This document shows, one piece after another, positions 4,861 through 59,337 of a stretch of DNA of 64,000 nt; position 1 is the first letter of the stretch, and each line of letters begins with the position of its first letter. The stretch spans positions 248,001 to 312,000 of the forward strand of contig NW_027590159.1 in the NCBI RefSeq assembly GCF_964213995.1. Reading direction: 5' to 3'. The position numbers and the translations under genes are program-made. The notes beneath the pieces are model-generated. The model was not told the DNA's origin. It was given only the letters and a program-made list of their open reading frames with translations, and did not search any database. This stretch comes from Mustelus asterias (lineage: Eukaryota).

Positions 4861-4908
4861 ACTGAAATCATACAGATTTCCTCACCCTAAATTAGAAAGA
4901 TTAATGAA

Positions 4909-4981
4909 CGTTTCTGCCCGGTTTTGAACTGGGAACCTTTCGCGTGTGAGGTGAATGTGATAACCAATACACTACAGAAAC
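4909..4981 (-). pseudogene. tRNA-Val(CAC), moderately degenerate
   Basis: cgtttctgcccggttttgaactgggaacctttcgcgtgtgaggtgaatgtgataaccaatacactacagaaac; A box and T arm mutated. Confidence 0.88.
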
Positions 4982-5813
4982 AGGTGACAGCAATGACAGC
5001 AAATCCGCCTCTCTGCAATGTTCAACTGCGCTGTGTTGCTGCAGTTTCAAATGGTTCGACTGAGAGGCCATGTCCCTTGTTTCAGGAAGATAACCGTTAC
5101 TGTCAATATGATTGCTCAACTTATCTTGAACTTCAAAATTTTAAAGCGATCGCCTGTCAAATATCAAAGCAACAATGAATTCCACTCATTCATTAATGCA
5201 TTATTTTCATCTTCCTTCGAATAATCTCAACCAATTGTGCTCATTAATGAAAGCAAATTACTGCAGATGATGGAATCTGAAACCAAAGGAGAAAATGCTG
5301 GAAAATCTCACAAGGTCTGGCAGCATCTGTAAGGAGAGAAAAGAGCTGACGTTTGGAATCCAGATGACATTTTGCCAAAGCTCACTTTACAATTGTACTC
5401 AGTATTTGTTTCAATATTTAACCTCAATACATTGTGTCACACATATGACATCATTCTGAAGAGAATATCTCTGAAATTGAATCACGAGTATCACTTGTGT
5501 CTGTCTTGTTGAGCACACACTCCTATTAGACATGTTTCAGATGGTGATTCGCTATTTTAGTTTGCACCTAAAAACCCATTAAATTCTGTTGTCCACTGAA
5601 CAAGGTGATACTATGTGCACGTTGTCAAAATAGAGACGTTTCTTTCCTGTCAGTGCGTCAAAAAGAAATCAGCATTTCTTATTCACAGAAACCATTTGAG
5701 TTTGAGGTCAGAGCAAAGATAATATTGTTGTAATATCGAGATTCGGATAATGTTCAGCAACGAACTGAAATCATACAGGATTTCCCTCATCTTCCATGAG
5801 AAAGCTTAACGAA

Positions 5814-5886
5814 TGCTGCTTCCCTGTTTCGGACCGGGGACTTTTTGTGTTTTAGGCGAACGGGATAACCACTCCACTGCAGAAAC
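5814..5886 (-). pseudogene. tRNA-Val degenerate copy
   Basis: gtttcggaccggggac...aggcgaacgggataaccact; anticodon decayed. Confidence 0.8.
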
Positions 5887-7414
5887 AAGTGATAGGATTG
5901 GGGCCTCAATGGCCCTGACTACAATGTTTAACTCCACTTTGTTGCTGCAGGTTTGAATGGTATGATTGAGGGCCCATGTCACTTAATACAAGAGCACATC
6001 CCTGACTTTCAACCTGATATCTCAACTTATCTTGTTCTTCAAAATTAAAAAGAGTTCATCCGGCAAATGTCTAAGAAAGCACTGATTTGTGCTCAATCAT
6101 CAATGCTTCATTCTTATCTTCCTGCGAATAATTTCAACCAATTATACTCAGTATTTGTTTCATGGAATCATAGAATCAGTGCAGAAAAGGTATTCGATCG
6201 AACGAATCAGGAGCGACGCCAGAATATCATAACCAGGCCATTTCTCTCGTTTCCCCCGCAACGCTACTCCTTTCCCATGGCTATTCAATCTAACCAAGGG
6301 GCAATTTAGCATGCCCAATCCACCTTGGATCTTCATTCAATTTTTAATATCAATACAGTTATTTAATATATATGTCCAAATTCTGAATTTAATATCTCTT
6401 GAATATACAATCGGTCTGACTGCATTGTTCAACTCCGCTCTATTGCTGCAGATTCGAATGGTTGGAATGGGAGTCCATATACCTTAGTGCAAGAAGATAA
6501 CCGTTACTTTCAACGTGATGTCTCAACTTGTCTCGAATTTCAAAATTTAAAAGCGTTCATCGGACAAATATGTAAGGGAGCAATGATTTCTGCTCAATCA
6601 TTGATGCATCATTCTTATATACGATCGATTAACTTCAAACAGTTATATCCAGTATTTGTTCGGTAATCAACATTTAGTATCAATCCATTTATTTAACACA
6701 GATGTCTTCATTGCGGATTGAATATGTCTGAAATATACAGCATTGAATTGCAAACATTATTGACCAACAAAATAAATCGAGTCACGGGTAATACACATCC
6801 CATGGTGCTTTTTTGAGTTTGACCATGATCAGCTTTTAAAACCAAATCAAATATATTTAAAGGGAAGAGATTCAAGAATGATCTGTTAGTTATACTTGAT
6901 CCCTCTATATTCTGTGTGACAAACATTCTGGCGCCTAAATCTCGTTCATCTATAGGAGATCCAGAAGGTCCGCTTTGATTCTCGATTTCCTCTTCTGTCT
7001 GAGAGGTTTTCCCTATTTCGTTATTCTGAAGAACAATTTTAAAAAGATGCTTCGGGAAAATGTGCTCCATTTCCTCTCGTTCAGTTACAGTATCACTTGT
7101 ATCTGTATTTTTGAGCACACAATACTATTAGACATGTTTCAGTTGGTGATGAATTATGTTAGTCTGCATTTATAAACCTATTAAATTCTGGTGTGGACTG
7201 AAAATATTGCTAATATGTGCACGGTTTTAAAATAGGAACATCTATTTCCTCTCATCGCGTCATGAAAATACAAGATTTCTGATTTTGCTGAAAGCTTTTG
7301 AGGCAGAGGTCAGCGCAAATATAACATGGCTGTAACATCGAGTTTTGGATAATGTTCAGCTACAATCTGAAATTATATAGACTTCCCTCAACCTTAATGA
7401 ACAAATTTCATTAA

Positions 7415-7487
7415 TGCTTCTGCTCGATTTCGAACGTGGGCCCTTGCGTGCGTGAGGCAAATGCAATCAGCACTACACCACGGAAAC
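7415..7487 (-). pseudogene. tRNA-Val(CAC) degenerate copy
   Basis: tttcgaac...cgtgaggcaaatg...cactacaccacggaaac; last copy of block 1. Confidence 0.78.
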
Positions 7488-8181
7488 TGTTGGCTGCTCC
7501 GTAGCCCAATGGGGCTGAGTTGATATGTTGCAATATTCGTTGGGAATGCTGTAGACACATTAATCTAAGAATGATTGAAAATGGTGAACAATGTCACAGA
7601 ACGATGAGAGGCTCATCAATCCATCAGATCTTTGCGAATTATTTTATGAGGAGCTAAATAATTAAGATGTCGTTGCGGGATTGATGGGTCGAAGGGCCTG
7701 TTTCTGTCCTGAACTGTTCTTTGTTCCAATTTCAATTTCCTCCTCTAATTCCATGAAGTTGATGTTTCTCCCTTTTAAGTCATTGAAAAATCCCAATTTG
7801 AAGAAGGAGTTTCTGCGGAATCCATGCTTTAACAGAATTTGCTTTAACAACCTTTCCCTTACCCAATGGCAGGAAGTATTGGATTTACCCTCCCGATATA
7901 GTTTTCAATGTAAACATATATTTATTTATGCAATTGATTTCATATCGATTTTACAAAACGAATTTAAATCTGATGTAGCATCTCCACATTATTTCTGAAT
8001 TATATCCAATATAACTACATTTACTCCACAACCTTCCACAGAGTGTGGAATATAACCGACGAGAATGAATCACCTACACCTGAAGCAGTCTTCTTGTTTT
8101 GTCCTCCTGTGTCCTGAACATCCAATCCGAGAACCTCGAGATTCGATGGAGAATCTCTCTTATTCACACGGACTTCACATA

Positions 8182-10832: not shown

Positions 10833-10922
10833 GGCTCGTTGGTCTAGGGGTATAATTCTCGCTTAGGGTACCTCGCCCCATTAGCATGCGAGAGGTCCTG
10901 GGTTCAAATCCCGGACGAGCCC
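10833..10922 (+). tRNA. tRNA-Pro(AGG) with an 18-nt insertion at the canonical intron site (10869-10886)
   Basis: GGCTCGTTGGTCTAGGGGTATAATTCTCGCTT-AGG-G[TACCTCGCCCCATTAGCA]TGCGAGAGGTCCTGGGTTCAAATCCCGGACGAGCCC. Exons differ from vertebrate tRNA-Pro at two sites; one breaks D-stem pair C12-G23, so functionality is uncertain. Confidence 0.88.
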
Positions 10923-11216
10923 CGTTTCGACCAAAATATTGTGTTCAAAAGGAGATATTTTGATTTGTTTAAGGTGCAAACGGCGGGATGGCTTTCTGCT
11001 GACTGGCTCCGAAAAAGAGTCAGAAAGGCCCAGAATTTTACAGCACGGATAGAGCCCACTGGGACACCCACATGGCAGGCGCGGACACCCATCATGTCTG
11101 CGCCTGCCACGTGACAGCTGGACGGGAAGCGTTAGTTCTGATTCTCGCTGCACAGATACTTCCAGAAATGCTGACATAACCCAGCATTTTCTGTTTTTAT
11201 TTCAGATTTTGAAAGT

Positions 11217-14450: not shown

Positions 14451-14531
14451 GGCTTCTTGGTGTAGGGGTATGAATCGCATTTTGGTATGCCTTAACCACC
14501 GAGATCCCGAGTTGAAATCCGAGACTAGCCC
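14451..14531 (+). pseudogene. tRNA-Pro(TGG)-derived pseudogene with 9 extra nt 3' of the anticodon
   Basis: GGCTTCTTGGTGTAGGGGTATGAAT...TTTGGT[ATGCCTTAA]...GATCCCGAGTTGAAATCCGAGACTAGCCC; 81 nt versus 72 nt. Confidence 0.72.
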
Positions 14532-19724: not shown

Positions 19725-20961
19725 TCTGAGAAAGCTTAATGAACGTTTCTGCCTTGGTTCGATCTGGGGATTTTTGGAGTGTTATGCGAACCTGATAACC
19801 ACTGCACGAAAGCAACAGCTTAAAAGGCACTGGAGCAAATCTGCCTGTCTGCAATGTTCAACTACGCTGTGTTGCTGCAGTTTCCGATGGTTCGACTGAG
19901 AGCCCGTATGACTTAATTGACGAAGATAACCGTTACTTTCAATCTGATTGTACGACTTATCCAGAAGATCAAAAAATAAAAGAGTTCGTCTCGCAAATAT
20001 CTAAGGGAGCAATAATTTCTGCCCCTTCATTAATGCATCATTCTCAGCTTTCATCGAATAGTCTCAATCAATTGTACTAAGTAATTAGAGCAAATTATTG
20101 CGGATGAGAAAAGACTAAATGCTCCAAAATCTCCCAATGTCTGACAGCACCTGTAACGAGTGAAACGGGTGGACGCTTCGAGTCCAGATGACACTTTATC
20201 AAAGCTCATTGTACAATTGTACTCAGTATTTGTTTCACTATTTAATATCAATGCATTATTTAACACATATGTCTTCATTATTAATTGAATATCTCTGAAA
20301 TTGAACATCACTGAATTGCAAACGTAACTGACCAACAGAACGAATCGAATCACCGGCTAATACACTTCGCAATTTTGGGATTGATTATCGTCAGCATTTA
20401 CATAAAGTCAACGACATTTAAACGGAGAAGAGTCCAGAATTATCTGTTCGCGACACTTGAGCCTTTTTTATTATGGACGTGAAACATTCAGGCGCATAAA
20501 TTCCGGCCCTTTACATGAAAGTCCAGTAGATCCGCACTGAGTCTCGATTCCCTCATCGGTCTGAGGGGCGTGAAACATTCAGGCACCTAAATATTTTTTT
20601 TAAAGAATCTTCTGTGAAATGTGCGCCATTTCATCTAGTTCCCTTACAGTATCAGTTGTAACTTTCTTTTTGAGCACACACTACTGTCAGATATTTCAGA
20701 TGGCGATTGACCATATTAGTCTGCACCTATAAATCCATAAGGTTCTGTTTTAGACTGAGCGGGATGGGAATAAGTGCTCAGTGTCAAAATCGAACTTTCC
20801 TGTCACTGCGTCAAAAAATACGTTTCTTACTTCACAGAAAGCATTTGAGGGTGATGTCAGCGCAATCAAAACATGCCTTTAAAATCGAGGCTCGGATAAT
20901 GATGAGCAATGAACTTAAATCAAGCAATTTTCCCTTACCCGACATGGTAAAGCTTAATGGA

Positions 20962-21034
20962 TGTTCCTGCCCGGTTTCGAACCGGGGATTTTCCGCGTGT
21001 TAGGTGAACGTGATAACCACTACACTACAGAAAC
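20962..21034 (-). tRNA. tRNA-Val(AAC), best-preserved array copy (possibly a pseudogene)
   Basis: Minus strand GTTTCTGTAGTGTAGTGGTTATCACGTTCACCT-AAC-ACGCGGAAAATCCCCGGTTCGAAACCGGGCAGGAACA. A and B boxes are intact and the acceptor stem pairs; one A-C mismatch in the anticodon stem. Confidence 0.8.
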
Positions 21035-22181
21035 AGCTTGAAGGGCATTTCAGAAACTCTGCCTGGCTGCAATGTTGAATTACGCTGTGTTGCTGCAGGT
21101 TCCGATGGTGAGACTGAGAGCCCATGGCACGGAATTCAGGAAGATAACCGTTACTTTCAATCTGATTGCACGACGTATCCCGAACATCAAAAGTTAAAAG
21201 CGTTCGTCTCGCAAATATCTAAGGGAGCAATGATTTCTGCCCATTCATTAATGCATCATTTTTATCTTTCTTCGAATAATCTCAATCAATTGTACTCAGT
21301 AAAGAAGCAAATGATTGCGGATTCTGGAATCGTAAACGAAAAGGGAAAATTCTGGCAAGTCTCACAAGGACTGACAGCATCTATAAGGAGTGAAAAGAGC
21401 TGACGTTTCGAGTCGAGCTGACATTTTGTCAAAGCTCATCAATTGTACGCAATATTTGTTTCAATATTTAGTACCAATGCATTATTTGACACATATGTCT
21501 TCATTTCTGGAATTGAACATCACTGAATTGCAAACATAACTGACCAACAAAATGAATCGAGTCCCGAGTAATGCAGATCGCAATTTTAAGATTGAAAATA
21601 GTCAGCTTTTTAAAAAAAAAGTCAACTACATTTAAATGGAGGAGAATCAAGAATTATCTGTTCGTGACACTTGAGCCTTTTTATTATGGGTGTGAAACAT
21701 TCAGGTGCATAAATTCCGGCCCTTTTCAGGAAAGTCCAGTCGATCCGCACTGAGTCTCGATTCCCTTATCTGTCTGAGTGGCTTTTCCTGTTTCTCAGTG
21801 ATGAAAAACGATTTTAAAAAAAGATCCTTCTGTGAAATGTGCGCCATTTCCTCTAGTTCACTTACAGTATCACTTGTATCTGTCTTTTTGAGCACACGCT
21901 ACTATCAGATATTTCAGATGATGATTAATCATATTAGTCTGCACCTCTAAACCCATTCAATTCTGTTGTAGTCTGAACGAGATGCGAATGCGTGCTCGGT
22001 GTCAAAATCGAATATTCCTGTCAGTGCGTCAAAAAAAAATCGTTTCTTATTTCACAGAAAGCATTTGAGGGTGATGTCAGAGCAATGATAACATGCCTTT
22101 AACATCGAGGTTCGGATAACGTTCAGCATCAAACTGAAATCAAGCAGTATTCCCTTACCCGACATGAGAAAGCTTAATGAA

Positions 22182-22253
22182 TGTTTATCTCCGGTCTCGA
22201 ATCGGGGAACTTTCCACGTGTTAGGCGAACGCGGCAACAACTACGACAGAAAC
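22182..22253 (-). pseudogene. tRNA-Val(AAC) degenerate copy
   Basis: ccggtctcgaatcggggaactttccacgtgttaggcgaacg; D arm decayed. Confidence 0.8.
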
Positions 22254-23399
22254 AGCTTGAAGCACGATAGAGCAAATCTGCCTGTCTGCAATGTTCAACT
22301 ACGCTGTGTTGCTCCAGGTTTCGATGGTGAGACTGAGAACCCATGTCACTGAATTCAGGAAGATAACCGTTACTTTCAATCTGATTGTACGACTTATGCC
22401 GAACATCAACATTTGAAATCGTTCGTTTCGCAAATATCTAAGGGAGCAATGATTTCTTCCCATTCATTAATGCATCATTTTCATCTTTTTCGAATAATCT
22501 CAATCAATTGTACTCAGTAATAAAAGCAAATTACTGCGGATGAGAAAAGAGAAAATGCTGCAAAATCTCACAGTGTCTGACACCACCTGTAAGGAGTGAA
22601 ACGGGCGTGCGTTTCGAGTCCAGATGGCACTTCATCAAAGCTCATTGTACAATTGTACTCAGTATTTGTTTCACTATTTAGTATCAAGGCCTTATATAAC
22701 ACGTATGTCTTCATTATGAATTGAATATCTCTGAAATTGAACATCACTGAATTGCAAACATAACTGCCCAACAGAACGAATCGAATCACCGGGTAATACA
22801 GATCGCAATTTTGAGATTGAATATCGTCAGCTTTTAAAGAAAGCCAACTGCATTTAAATGGAGAAGAATCAAGAATTATCTGTTCGTGACACTTGAGCCT
22901 TTTTTATTCTGGGCGTGAAACATTCATGCGCATAAATTCCGGCCCTTTACAAGAAAATCCTTTAGATTCGCCCTGAGTCTCGATTCCCTTATCTGTCTGA
23001 GTGGTTTTTCCTGTTTCTTCGTGATGAAAAATGATTTTTAAAAAAAGATTCTTCTGTGAAATGTGCGCCATTTCCTCTCGTTCACTTACAGTATCACTTG
23101 TATCTGTCTCTTTGAGCACACACTACGATCAGATATTTCAGACGGTGATCAACCATATTAGTCTGCACCTATAAACCCATTAAATTCGGGTGTCGACTGA
23201 ACGAGATGCGAATATGTGCTCAGTGTCAAAACCGAACTTTCCTGTCAGTGCGTCAAAGAAAACCCGTTTCTTATTTCACAGAAAGCATTTGAGGGTGCTG
23301 TCAGAGCAATGATAACCTGCCTTTAACATGGAGGTCCGGATAATGTTGCGCAACAAACTGAAATCAATGAACTTTCCTGACATGAGAAAGCGTAATGCA

Positions 23400-23472
23400 T
23401 GTTTCCGCTTGGCTTCGAACCGGGGATCTTTCGCGTGTTCGGTGAACGTGATCATCACTACGTTACAGAAAC
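23400..23472 (-). pseudogene. tRNA-Val(AAC) degenerate copy
   Basis: tgtttccgcttggcttcgaaccggggatctttcgcgtgttcggtgaacgtgatcatcactac. Confidence 0.82.
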
Positions 23473-24638
23473 CGCTGGAAACGCGGTTGAGCAAATCTGC
23501 CTGTCTGCAATGTTCAACTACGCTGTGTTGCTGCAGGTTCCGATGGTGAGACTGAGAGCCCATGTCCCTGAATTCAGGAAGATAACCGTTACTTTCAATC
23601 TGATTGTACGACTTATCCCGAACATCAAAATTTAAAATCGTTCGTCTCGCAAATATCTAAGGGAGCAATGATTTCTGCCCATTCATTGATGCATCATTTT
23701 CATCTTTCTTCGAATAATCTCAATCAATTGTACTCAGTAATAAAAACAAATTGCACGGGGATGAGAAAAGCGAAAATGCTGCAAAATCTCACAATATCTG
23801 ACAGCACCTGTAAGGAGTGAAAAGGGCGGACGTTTCGAGTCCAGATGACACTTTATTGAAGCTCATTGTACAATTGTACTCAGTTGTTTCAATATTTAGT
23901 ATCAAGGCATTATTTAACACATATGTCTTCATTATGAATTGAATATCTCTGAAATTGAACATCACTGAATTGCAAACATAACTGCCCAACAGAACGAATG
24001 GAATCACCGGGAAATACAGATCACAATTTTGAGATTTACTATCGTCAGCTTTTAAACAAAGTCAACTACATGTAAATGGAGGAGAATCAAGAATTATCTG
24101 ATCGTGACACTTGAACCTTTTTTATTATGGGCGTGAAACATTCAGGCACAGAAATTCCGGCCATTTATAGGAAATTCCAGTAGATCCGCACTGAGTCTCG
24201 CAGCCTATAGCAAATCGGCCTGTCTGCAATGTTGAACTGCGCTGTTGTGCTGCACGTTCAAATGGTTAGACTGAGAGCCTCGTCTCCTCCCCCGCCCCCC
24301 CTCCACCCTCGCAACCTCCCTCCCCCATCCACCCCGCAACAATGTGTCTTGTTTGAGGAAGATAACCGCTGTTTTCAATCTGATTGCTCAACTTATCTTG
24401 AACTTCAAAACTTAGAAGCGTTAGTCTGGCAAATATCTGAGGGAGCAATGATTTCTGCTCATTCATTAATGCATCATTCTCATCTTCCTTCGAATAAGCT
24501 GAACCAATTGTACTCAGTAATAAAAACAATTTACCGTGGATGCTGGAATCTGAAACCAACAGAGAAAGTGCTGGAAAATCTCACAAGGTCTGGAAGCATC
24601 TGTAAGGAGAAAAAAGGGCTGACGTTTCGTGTTCAGAT

Positions 24639-27700: not shown

Positions 27701-28986
27701 AGCATTCGTGAGACTCATTTTACAATTGTACTCAGTATTTGTTTCAATATTTAGTATCAATGCATTATTTAACATATATGGCTTCATTATGAATTGAATA
27801 TCTCTGAAATTGAATTTCACTGAATTGCAAACATAAGGACCAACAGAAGGAAGCGAGTCACCGGGTAAAGGAGATCGCAATTTTGACATTGATCATCGTC
27901 TGCTGTTAAACAAAATCAACTCCATTTAAATGAAAGAGATTGAAAAGACATCTGTTAGTTGCACTTAAGCCTTTTAATTATGGGCGTGAAACATTCAGGC
28001 GCATAAATGTTGGCCATCTTTAGGAAAGTCCAATCGATCCGCATTGAGTTTCGATTTCCTCATCTGGCTGAGTGCTGTTTCCTATTTCCTTGTTATGAAG
28101 AACGATTTCCAAAAAAAAAACATGTTGTAGGAAATGTGCGCCTTTTCCTCTAATTCGCTTACACTACCACTTGTGTCTGTATTTTTGAGCACACACTGCA
28201 ATTAGACATGTTTCAGATGGTGATTAACTCTGTTCGTCTGCACCTTTAAACCCATTATATTCTGTTGTAGACTGAAAGAGATGCTAATGTGTGCACACTG
28301 TCAAAATCGAAAATTTCCTGTCAGTGCGTCAAAGGAATCAGCATTTCTTATTTTACAGAAAACATTTGAGGCAGAGTTCAGAGCAAAGATAATATGGCTG
28401 TAACATCGAGATTTGGTTGATGTTCAGCAACGATCTGAAATCATACAGATTTCCCTCACCCTACATGGGAAAGCTGATGAATGTTCTGCCCGGTTCTGAA
28501 GCGGTGATCTTTCACGTGTTGGGCCAATGTGATAACCACAGAAACAAGAGAATGCGCCACGCTGCCAATTGGCCTGACTACAATGTTGAACTACATCGTG
28601 TTGCTGCAGGTTCTCATGGTCACATTGAGGGTCCATGTCAATTAATAGAAGAACAAATCCGTTATTTTCAACCTGATATATCAACTTATCTTGAACCTCA
28701 AAATAAATATATTCGATATATTTCAGATGGTGATTAACTACGTCAGTCTGCACGTCCAAACCCATTAAATTAATTTGTGGACTGCACGAGTTGCGAATAT
28801 GTGTATACACAATGGAGTTCTTTATTCCCTGCGTCCTCAAAGACAGCATTTCTGACTTTCCGAAATTCATTTGAGGCCGAGATCGAAGCCAATATAACAT
28901 GACCGTGACATCTGATTCGCATGAGGTTGAGCTATGAACTCACATCATGCAAACTTTGCTCATGCTTAATGGCACCGATCCAACAG

Positions 28987-29059
28987 TGTTTCTGCCTGGT
29001 TTCGAACCGGGGACTTTTCGCGTGTGAGGCGAATGTGAGAACAACTACACTTCAGGAAC
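28987..29059 (-). pseudogene. tRNA-Val(CAC), moderately degenerate
   Basis: tgtttctgcctggtttcgaaccggggacttttcgcgtgtgaggcgaatgtgagaacaactacacttcaggaac. Deleted copies also lie at 28482-28545 and ~29393-29447. Confidence 0.85.
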
Positions 29060-29703
29060 AGCTGACAATGCCCACGTGCAGTTTCACTTGTATCTGTCCT
29101 TTTGAGCACACACTGCCATTAGACATGTTTCAGATGGCGATTAACTACGTTAGTCTGCACCTATTAACCCATTAAAATCTGTTGTCGACTGAACGAAATG
29201 CTGATGTGCGCATGCTGTCAAAATAGAAACATTTCTTTCCTGTCAGTGCGCCAAAATATTCAGCATTTATTTTACAGGAAGCATTTGAGGCCGACGTCAA
29301 GCAAAGATAATATGAATCGAGATTCGGATAATGTTCAGCAACAAACTGAAATCATTCAGATTTCTCTCACCCGACATGAAAAACCTTAATATATTCTTCT
29401 GCCCGGTTTCGGACCGGGGTCCTTTACAAGCACTAAACTACAGAAACAAATGACAGCATATCGTCCCCAATCGGCCTGACTACAATGCTCAACTCCACTC
29501 TGTTGCTGCAGGTTCGCATGGTTAGATTGACGACCCATGCCACTTAATACATGAACACACTCGTTACTTTCAACCTGATGTGTCAACTTATCTTGTAATT
29601 CCAAATTAAAAAGCGTTCCTCCAGCAAATGCCTCAGGGAACTCAATGAGTTAAAGCTCAATTGTTTCAGTTCAGAATTCAGACGATGTTGAGCAATTCCG
29701 GCC

Positions 29704-42347: not shown

Positions 42348-42437
42348 CCCGCGTAGGTCTGGGGGTATGATTTTCCCTTCATTTGTTAACAATCATAAAT
42401 TTGCTGGAGGTCCCGGGTTCAAATCCCGGGCGAGCCC
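42348..42437 (+). pseudogene. tRNA-Pro-derived pseudogene with an 18-nt insertion at the intron site (42384-42401)
   Basis: cgtaggtctgggggtatgatt...gaggtcccgggttcaaatcccgggcgagccc; 90 nt in total, the same length as the copy at 10833. Confidence 0.78.
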
Positions 42438-50351: not shown

Positions 50352-50692
50352 AGAATCATAGAAACCCTACAGTGGAGAAAGGGGCCATTCGGCCCATCGA
50401 GTCTGCACCGACCACAACCCCACCCAGGCCCAACCCCCATATCCCTACGTATTTTACCCACTAATCCCTCAAACCTACGCTTCTCAGGACACTAAGGGGC
50501 AATTTTAGCATGGCCAATCAACCTAACCCGCACATCTTTGGACTGTGGGAGGAAACCAGAGCACCCGGAGGAAACCCACGCAGACACGAGGAGAATGTGC
50601 AAACTTCACACAGACAGTGACCCAAGCCGGGAATCGAACCCAGGTCCTTGAAGCTGTGAAGCAGCGGTGCTAACCACTATGCTACCGTGCCG
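50352..50692 (-). mobile_element. Full-length HE1-type SINE in the GPCR intron
   Basis: Complete reverse-complement HE1 from gaatcatagaaacc to gctaccgtgccg. Confidence 0.92.
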
Positions 50693-51409
50693 CTCTGCTG
50701 ACGCATTCTGTTGAACCCTGAGGAAATGTTGCACTGTAGGCGGGCCATTCTCCAGTTGTGATGTCATCGTCTGGCTCAAATTGGCACAGAAGATCCCAGA
50801 CAATTATCAGGTAAAGAAATTGGATTTTCCACTGTGTCCTATTCAAAAGAACCTCTGCAAAATCGGAGAAACGCTCATCGTCCATTCGCGACTCTTGAAG
50901 ATGCTTATGATCAAGTTGTTTTCATGTATTTGCCACAATCATTTTACAGTAATTGATTCAATATGGCCACTTTCAGACCCTGGCAAGATGGAACGAGCTT
51001 CCTGGTTAGATTTCACACTTGTGTTGTTTGTGCTTTCGTTACCGAATGAAATGGCTTCCATGATTGCCTGATGACGTGTTGTTGTTACTTCTCATCTATT
51101 TCGGAGCGTGTTGTAATCTGATTTCAATGCTGTCCGCTATCGGTTCGATTGATTTGCGCCATTTTAAAATGAAATGAAGCTGATTGAAATCACTTTGAAT
51201 TCGGATGCTTACATTCATCAACAGTAAACCATCCATCTTTCTCTTTTACCTTTTTTACAGCTAAGTTTGAAGTGATTGTGATCCTGTCTGAAAAAACATG
51301 TGACCTCTCCGAATGTATTAGGTGTTCCGTAGTGTCGATGGCAATTACGGATCTCCTGGTCATTATCACTACCATGATCTTAAACAAGATTGTTGGTGTT
51401 TATTTCTCA

Positions 51410-58902: not shown

Positions 58903-59245
58903 TCATAGAAATCATAGAAACCCTACAGTGCAGAAGGAGGCCATTCGGCCCATCGAGTCTGCACCGACCACTATCCCACCCAGGCCCTATCCCCACATAT
59001 TTTACCTGCTAATCCCTCTAACCTACACATCCCAGGACTCTAAGGGGCAATTTTTTAACCTGGCCAATCAACCTAACCCGCACATCTTTGGACTGTGGGA
59101 GGAAACCGGAGCACCCGGAGGAAACCCACGCAGACACGAGGAGAATGTGCAAACTCCACACAGACAGTGATCCGAGCCGGGAATCGAACCCAGGACCCTG
59201 GAGCTGTGAAGCAGCAGTGCTAACCACTGTGCTACCGTGCCGCCC
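58903..59245 (-). mobile_element. Full-length young HE1-type SINE
   Basis: Near-consensus reverse-complement HE1 ending gctaccgtgccgccc. Confidence 0.93.
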
Positions 59246-59247
59246 AA

Positions 59248-59337
59248 GCACAAGCACAGTTATGAACACAGACACGCACTGACGCAGTGAACTGCACAAG
59301 CACAGTTATGAACACAGACACGCACTGACGCAGTGAA
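59248..59337. repeat. Two-copy tandem duplication, period 46 bp
   Basis: gcacaagcacagttatgaacacagacacgcactgacgcagtgaa at 59248 and 59294. Confidence 0.9.

Follow-up and report, generated by a model that had tools for sequence, protein, structure and literature searches.

Positions 10833–10922 (+) of the window, the 64,000-nt stretch of Mustelus asterias DNA analysed here (C127:248001–312000 of a 3.68-Gb assembly), hold a gene for tRNA-Pro(AGG) that is interrupted by an insert of 18 nt at position 37/38. The locus raises the question of whether the insert is a genuine intron, recognised and removed by the tRNA splicing machinery, or an accident in a damaged gene copy. Pattern searches over this genome, together with a comparison of the insert among related genes, suggest that it is quite probably a canonical 37/38 tRNA intron carried by most of the Pro genes here and likely excised by TSEN, with RTCB rejoining the exons.

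The window gene and its Pro relatives

When introns are allowed, ARAGORN reports the gene as tRNA-Pro(agg) i(38,18), while it is missed by ARAGORN without introns and by Rfam. A Plastid-ycf2 match in Rfam (E 0.58) is weak and was attributed to chance. As the original prediction had claimed, the insert is located one base 3′ of the anticodon, directly after G37, and the D-stem contains a mismatch, C12·A23, which results from a G-to-A change. Compared with a Pro-AGG gene of this genome that lacks an intron, exon differences are found at 10854 and 10899, the latter producing a wobble pair in the T-stem, whereas the mature domain is intact in the siblings L003–L007. Its sequence marks the window copy as a decayed member of an intron-bearing Pro family; it may fail to yield a tRNA, and it is somewhat doubtful that it gives a stable one. 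A further, weak tRNA-Pro relic with 19 differences is located near 14451 (+).

Table 1 The tRNA-Pro gene of the window, its sequence changes and a related relic (positions within the window).
Feature	Position	Strand	Basis
tRNA-Pro(AGG) 5′ exon: A box, D arm, anticodon AGG (10865–10867), G37 (10868)	10833–10868	+	sequence reading, ARAGORN
Probable 18-nt intron at the canonical 37/38 site; −3 to −6 (10884–10881) can pair with 32–35 (10863–10866)	10869–10886	+	
3′ exon: T38, variable loop, T arm, intact B box (10901–10911), acceptor strand	10887–10922	+	
Copy-specific G-to-A, breaking D-stem C12–G23 (to C12·A23); same change in the twin on contig C122	10854	+	
Copy-specific C-to-T, T-stem C–G to U·G	10899	+	
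First Pol III terminator, decayed to TTTC (intact siblings have TTTT)	10925–10928	+	
Next T4 run, possible back-up terminator	10958–10961	+	
Second tRNA-Pro relic, heavily decayed (13 exon differences) but retaining 18 nt inserted at 37/38	42348–42437	+	

The surroundings of the gene are repetitive. Tandem units of ~1.2 kb occupy 19727–24200 of the window, with related units at 861–2400, 4861–7490 and 27705–29651; several of these hold a tRNA-Val gene or relic (20958–21035, 4908–4982 and 28987–29059), and decayed Arg, Leu and Cys genes are found around them. The region is a tRNA array that is undergoing turnover.

With a gapped exact pattern for the anticodon arm, 175 Pro genes bearing an insert were matched across this genome, a number which, like the other Pro counts given here, is a lower bound and may include haplotype duplicates, such as the C122 twin of the window gene that is 99.6% identical over 3090 bases. 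Since the reversed control gave 0 matches, chance is excluded. The pattern permitted inserts of 8–30 nt, and all 175 fall within 13–18 nt, with 18 nt in 145 genes, 13 nt in 19, 17 nt in 6, 14 nt in 4 and 15 nt in 1. By anticodon, the genes comprise 62 AGG, 19 CGG, 94 TGG and 0 GGG; nine are located on contigs C11–C23 and the remaining 166 on C71 or higher. In the remaining 28 closest siblings of the window gene, 1.5–2.4 kb around the gene are common at 90–96%, which indicates that the family has multiplied by segmental duplication within tRNA arrays. The original prediction was to fall if no high-quality intron-bearing Pro genes existed elsewhere; such genes are found in the same genome and with three anticodons, and in L003–L007 the exons are identical to those of the intronless Pro-AGG gene and a T4 terminator is present. 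In many TGG array copies a T4 run within 25 nt is absent.

Intronless counterparts are few. The ungapped version of the same exact pattern matched 10 intronless Pro genes (3 AGG, 1 CGG and 6 TGG), and a 3′-anchored pattern with one mismatch gave 19 intronless junctions among 45 matches, on contigs C3, C4, C10, C17 and C20. Among the 21 of these 45 matches that were parsed, seven are intronless genes with zero exon differences and a T4 terminator, and they cover all three anticodons. As each anticodon also has intact genes that lack the intron, splicing is neither required for decoding nor essential.

Two further arrangements in the Pro family were observed. At C19:64524703–64526505, two divergent Pro-AGG genes (L037 and L038) lie 1.7 kb apart with unique flanks and unrelated 18-nt introns. 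They have one exon difference and terminators of T4 or longer; no recognisable host gene was found within 30 kb of the pair. Among the candidates for loci that are both old and functional, it ranks first. At C71:15846181–15847608 (L071), adjoining TGG and CGG genes share a nearly identical intron and flanks, with C34 facing an A, and represent a recent anticodon switch.

Anticodon–intron pairing in the Pro and Arg genes

For comparison of the inserts, 129 gene-like matches, some of them the same place in overlapping loci, were reduced to those with an insert and at most three exon differences, giving 49 distinct types by anticodon and insert (23 AGG, 18 TGG and 8 CGG). First, the site of the insert can be fixed. 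In the window copy alone the insert could be placed equally at 37/38 or 38/39, but all four bases occur at the start of the insert among the 49 types while T38 lies within the conserved 3′ exon, so the site is 37/38.

Next, the insert is complementary to the anticodon loop. In the window copy, bases 32–35 face −3 to −6 (G, A, T and T) as U·G, U–A, A–U and G·U with a 3-nt bulge left at the 3′ site, exactly the pairs that had been predicted. Over all 49 types the same register pairs in 180/196 cells, 122 of them Watson–Crick, compared to 69–104/196 cells in six shifted registers and 90 ± 7 (maximum 115) in 5000 shuffles; the types stem from about six independent lineages and are not independent draws, therefore the shuffle figure is not a probability. 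In the nine family representatives alone, 33 of the 36 cells pair. The base at −5 is T in 22/23 AGG types, A in 12/18 TGG types and G in 4/8 CGG types, and it thus follows base 34 of the anticodon.

Finally, the proximal pair between base 32 and −3 forms in 43/49 types, 23 of them with Watson–Crick geometry. The pair is U32·G in the window subfamily and in 13/23 AGG types, and U·U is found in 5/8 CGG types. In Drosophila reporters, a G–U or U–G proximal pair is described as having “yielded almost no product”, with a similar trend in human cells (PMC6614914). According to the calculation in ViennaRNA, the anticodon–intron helix is 1.7 kcal/mol less favourable than an open loop. Free folding of the gene gives a minimum-energy structure that is not a cloverleaf (z = −1.18) and is therefore uninformative.

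The sequence divergence among the families is distributed very unevenly. In the 36 pairs that can be formed from the nine family representatives, the exons are 98.8% identical, the inserts 41% and the two 40-nt flanks 44% and 43%, against a random baseline of 34–39% in the same comparison; inserts and flanks are near random between families. Exon variants peculiar to single families include G16T in the CGG family and T19C in the C19 pair, both numbered along the gene, and G3A/C66T in Arg. Eukaryotic tRNA introns are described as located at 37/38, complementary to 33–35 and with C32 or U32 paired with the antepenultimate purine (PMC10275265, PMC10485636, PMC4090602), their length being given as 6–133 nt (PMC4090602) or generally 15–30 (PMC10485636). 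Judged from sequence, the Pro insert has the features of such an intron, as it is short, is situated at 37/38, and would form both the proximal pair and the 33–35 helix with its 3-nt bulge.

Introns in Arg-UCG genes appear to be built on the same plan as those in Pro. After a gene of this type with a 19-nt insert was first seen at loci L097 and L098, exact patterns matched 58 insert-bearing Arg genes in this genome, all with anticodon TCG and with inserts of 16–22 nt at 37/38, on contigs C26, C72, C75, C85, C102, C103, C130 and others (L097, L098 and L108–L137). Only one intronless Arg gene with anticodon TCG, CCG or GCG was found, a TCG gene with a T7 terminator (L138, C24). Position −3 is G in 16/16 types and forms a C32–G pair, position 33 is never paired, and 47/64 cells pair in total versus 28 ± 4 in shuffles. 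In 400 kb of array DNA, a small sample, ARAGORN gave no further clear intron-bearing isotype beyond Pro and Arg-TCG. ARAGORN also called a SeC(tca) gene with an 18-nt insert on C85 (~1134346–1134436, −), which looks like a decayed Arg-TCT gene.

Traces of transcription and splicing, and competing explanations

An intronless Pro-TGG copy on C3, L064, provides a clue to the fate of the insert. Its trailer (38/43 bases) and 4-nt leader are as in an intron-bearing TGG family, and the trailer ends at the T-rich run of that family. The same trailer has 26 matches, which include 21 array copies, and 21/21 of these retain the 18-nt intron; the other five are L064 itself, an inverted partial duplicate beside it, two 5′-truncated dispersed copies and one chance match. 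The simplest reading would be that L064 is a reverse transcript of a spliced, untrimmed precursor, although it could also be a template-switch chimera with a mature tRNA, with the same product. L064 may thereby be taken as indirect evidence for precise splicing. The leader match sits in a local inverted repeat. The duplicate is located ~400 bases upstream (L064/L181 and L180, C3:136697336–136697797), and a short palindrome is present at the 5′ junction.

L064 is the one case among the 19 intronless junctions with flanks of an intron-bearing family, and the family is a TGG one, not the AGG family of the window. For the latter, no spliced retrocopy was found among the 30 of 36 trailer matches that were parsed, all of which are intron-bearing; one AGG-family trailer match, L236, is a 3′ fragment. 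At the T run, the sequence of this fragment and of the unspliced AGG-family copies L206 and L235 gives way to the head of a SINE, which points to germ-line transcription by Pol III. Dispersed pre-tRNA-Pro copies with the 3′ end fused to a tRNA-like SINE head were observed at L031, L032, L034, L035, L066, L092, L179, L206, L235 and L236, which suggests that the fusions may have arisen via template switching during retroposition. Such heads, which presumably resemble HE1, are common in the fetched loci and are also present in the window at 59169–59261 (−) and 50619–50699 (−). Of the proteins TSEN2, TSEN34, TSEN15, TSEN54 and RTCB, the search covered TSEN2, and a TSEN2-like exon was found on C3 (E 2.7e-21 to a solved Sen2 chain). 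A search of sequencing runs gave 21 rows from several organisms, some labelled shark metagenome, with word shares of 0.00–0.34 and no RNA run among them; these rows do not enter the evidence.

Taken in sequence, the proposed mechanism would start with Pol III transcription from the internal A and B boxes to the T run, where the AGG-family retrocopies end. The precursor would adopt the tRNA fold with 32–35 paired to −3 to −6, for which the pairing potential is evident, and with the 3-nt bulge at the 3′ site, which the anticodon–intron helix would position for cutting. TSEN would then cut by a ruler from the tRNA body and RTCB would ligate the exons, as suggested by the established chemistry and the single spliced-looking retrocopy. 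For the intact siblings the spliced product would be that of the intronless genes, with which their exons are identical. We consider it quite likely that the Pro family is spliced in living animals. The claim of a spliceable intron in an atypical isotype is supported, with the qualifications that the window copy is itself decayed and that cleavage by TSEN is deduced from the sequence and one retrocopy.

The most serious competing explanation, although an unlikely one, is that the introns are real and were once spliced, but that the arrays are now mostly silent, with only the dispersed intronless genes, and perhaps the single-copy C19 pair, supplying tRNA-Pro, and with turnover from a few active masters keeping the array exons alike. 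The seven intronless genes with perfect exons and T4 for three anticodons would suit such a state, as would the many decayed tRNA genes in the window region and the weakness of the U·G proximal pair. In zebrafish embryos, moreover, large tRNA clusters are described as almost completely methylated at CpG sites (PMC11574265), so genes in arrays can be silent. However, every array family has members with 0–1 exon differences despite introns and flanks that are saturated between families, which implies recent selection on some members of each family, and several recent-looking retrocopies show germ-line transcription. Silent arrays consequently fit the window copy better than they fit the family.

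It is considerably less probable that the inserts are unspliced, the exons being homogenised by conversion with intronless genes or cDNA and the precursors serving as non-coding RNA, as a source of fragments, or being inert. The energy model indeed disfavours the helix, and most trailer-bearing retrocopies retain the insert; the latter, however, is expected if end trimming mostly precedes splicing, and in vertebrate cells the ends of pre-tRNAs are usually trimmed before splicing. Conversion from intronless templates would also erase the insert, and the pairing in the TSEN register, the tracking of base 34 by −5 and the C32–G pair of Arg-TCG would be left unexplained. The mutated state of the window copy could speak for a SINE derived from a tRNA or for a single insertion into a pseudogene, but both are highly implausible, as the kb-scale sibling flanks at 90–96% indicate segmental duplication and not retroposition, a 3′ tail is absent, and unrelated inserts occupy one fixed position in genes with three anticodons.

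Relation to known tRNA introns and possible significance

The intron-bearing families in human are listed as Tyr-GUA, Ile-UAU, Arg-UCU and Leu-CAA, and Pro-AGG, Pro-CGG, Pro-UGG and Arg-UCG are absent from that list in the part of the source covered here (PMC10275265). The human introns, as described there, share with those reported here the 37/38 position, the short length, the variation among family members and the pairing of U32 or C32 with an antepenultimate purine, and intron-bearing and intronless genes are likewise mixed (5/6 intron-bearing in Arg-UCU and 5/7 in Leu-CAA; PMC10275265). Unlike in human, the families here are Pro with three anticodons and Arg-UCG, and at 175 and 58 copies they are far larger and consist mainly of duplicated arrays. 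The small number of intronless genes next to many with introns has a parallel in the Arg-UCU genes of mouse and human, of which four are described as carrying an intron and one, specific to brain, as lacking it (PMC10485636); here one intronless Arg-UCG gene stands against 58.

Outside vertebrates, the budding-yeast tRNA-Pro(UGG) likewise carries a canonical intron, the deletion of which is described as lowering the amount of the tRNA with no growth defect (PMC6582322). In yeast all genes of the family are intron-bearing and UGG is the sole Pro anticodon named in the covered part of that source, whereas here three anticodons are involved and intronless genes coexist; no detectable homology is expected between the yeast and shark Pro introns. 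Zebrafish likewise has large duplicated tRNA arrays alongside dispersed genes, the large clusters being placed on chromosomes 4, 8 and 3 (PMC11574265). In the literature covered, including parts of PMC8450103, PMC11417395, PMC4981973 and PMC11574265, introns in Pro or Arg-UCG genes of vertebrates were not found to be reported, and genes of this kind may already be listed without comment in tRNA databases such as GtRNAdb. The mechanism itself is ordinary; the isotypes lie outside the four families listed for human.

As to the origin of the present arrangement, an old intron would have been multiplied by segmental duplication in the arrays, with a few dispersed intronless genes covering each anticodon. 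A more speculative model, which we regard as possible but rather unlikely, is a two-tier supply in which the dispersed intronless Pro and Arg-UCG genes would serve housekeeping needs and the hundreds of intron-bearing array genes would form an amplified, TSEN-dependent pool, perhaps for the oocyte or germ line. In this model the introns would either have been gained in chondrichthyans, across whole isotypes, or go back to the jawed-vertebrate ancestor and have been lost in mammals.

The intron-bearing tRNA families of vertebrates are usually taken as a fixed set of four, known from human and mouse, to which the present genome would add four more anticodon families, Pro with AGG, CGG and UGG and Arg with UCG, that bear the apparent TSEN signature. 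In practical terms, annotation that is blind to introns overlooks most of the Pro genes in such genomes. The weak U·G or U·U proximal pairs are natural substrates for examining the rules of TSEN recognition, and the coexistence of intron-bearing and intronless forms with an identical mature sequence constitutes a natural test of why introns are retained, be it for tRNA level, modification or tissue control. If the two-tier reading is true, these genes would offer an instance in which the gain or loss of tRNA introns in vertebrates can be dated.
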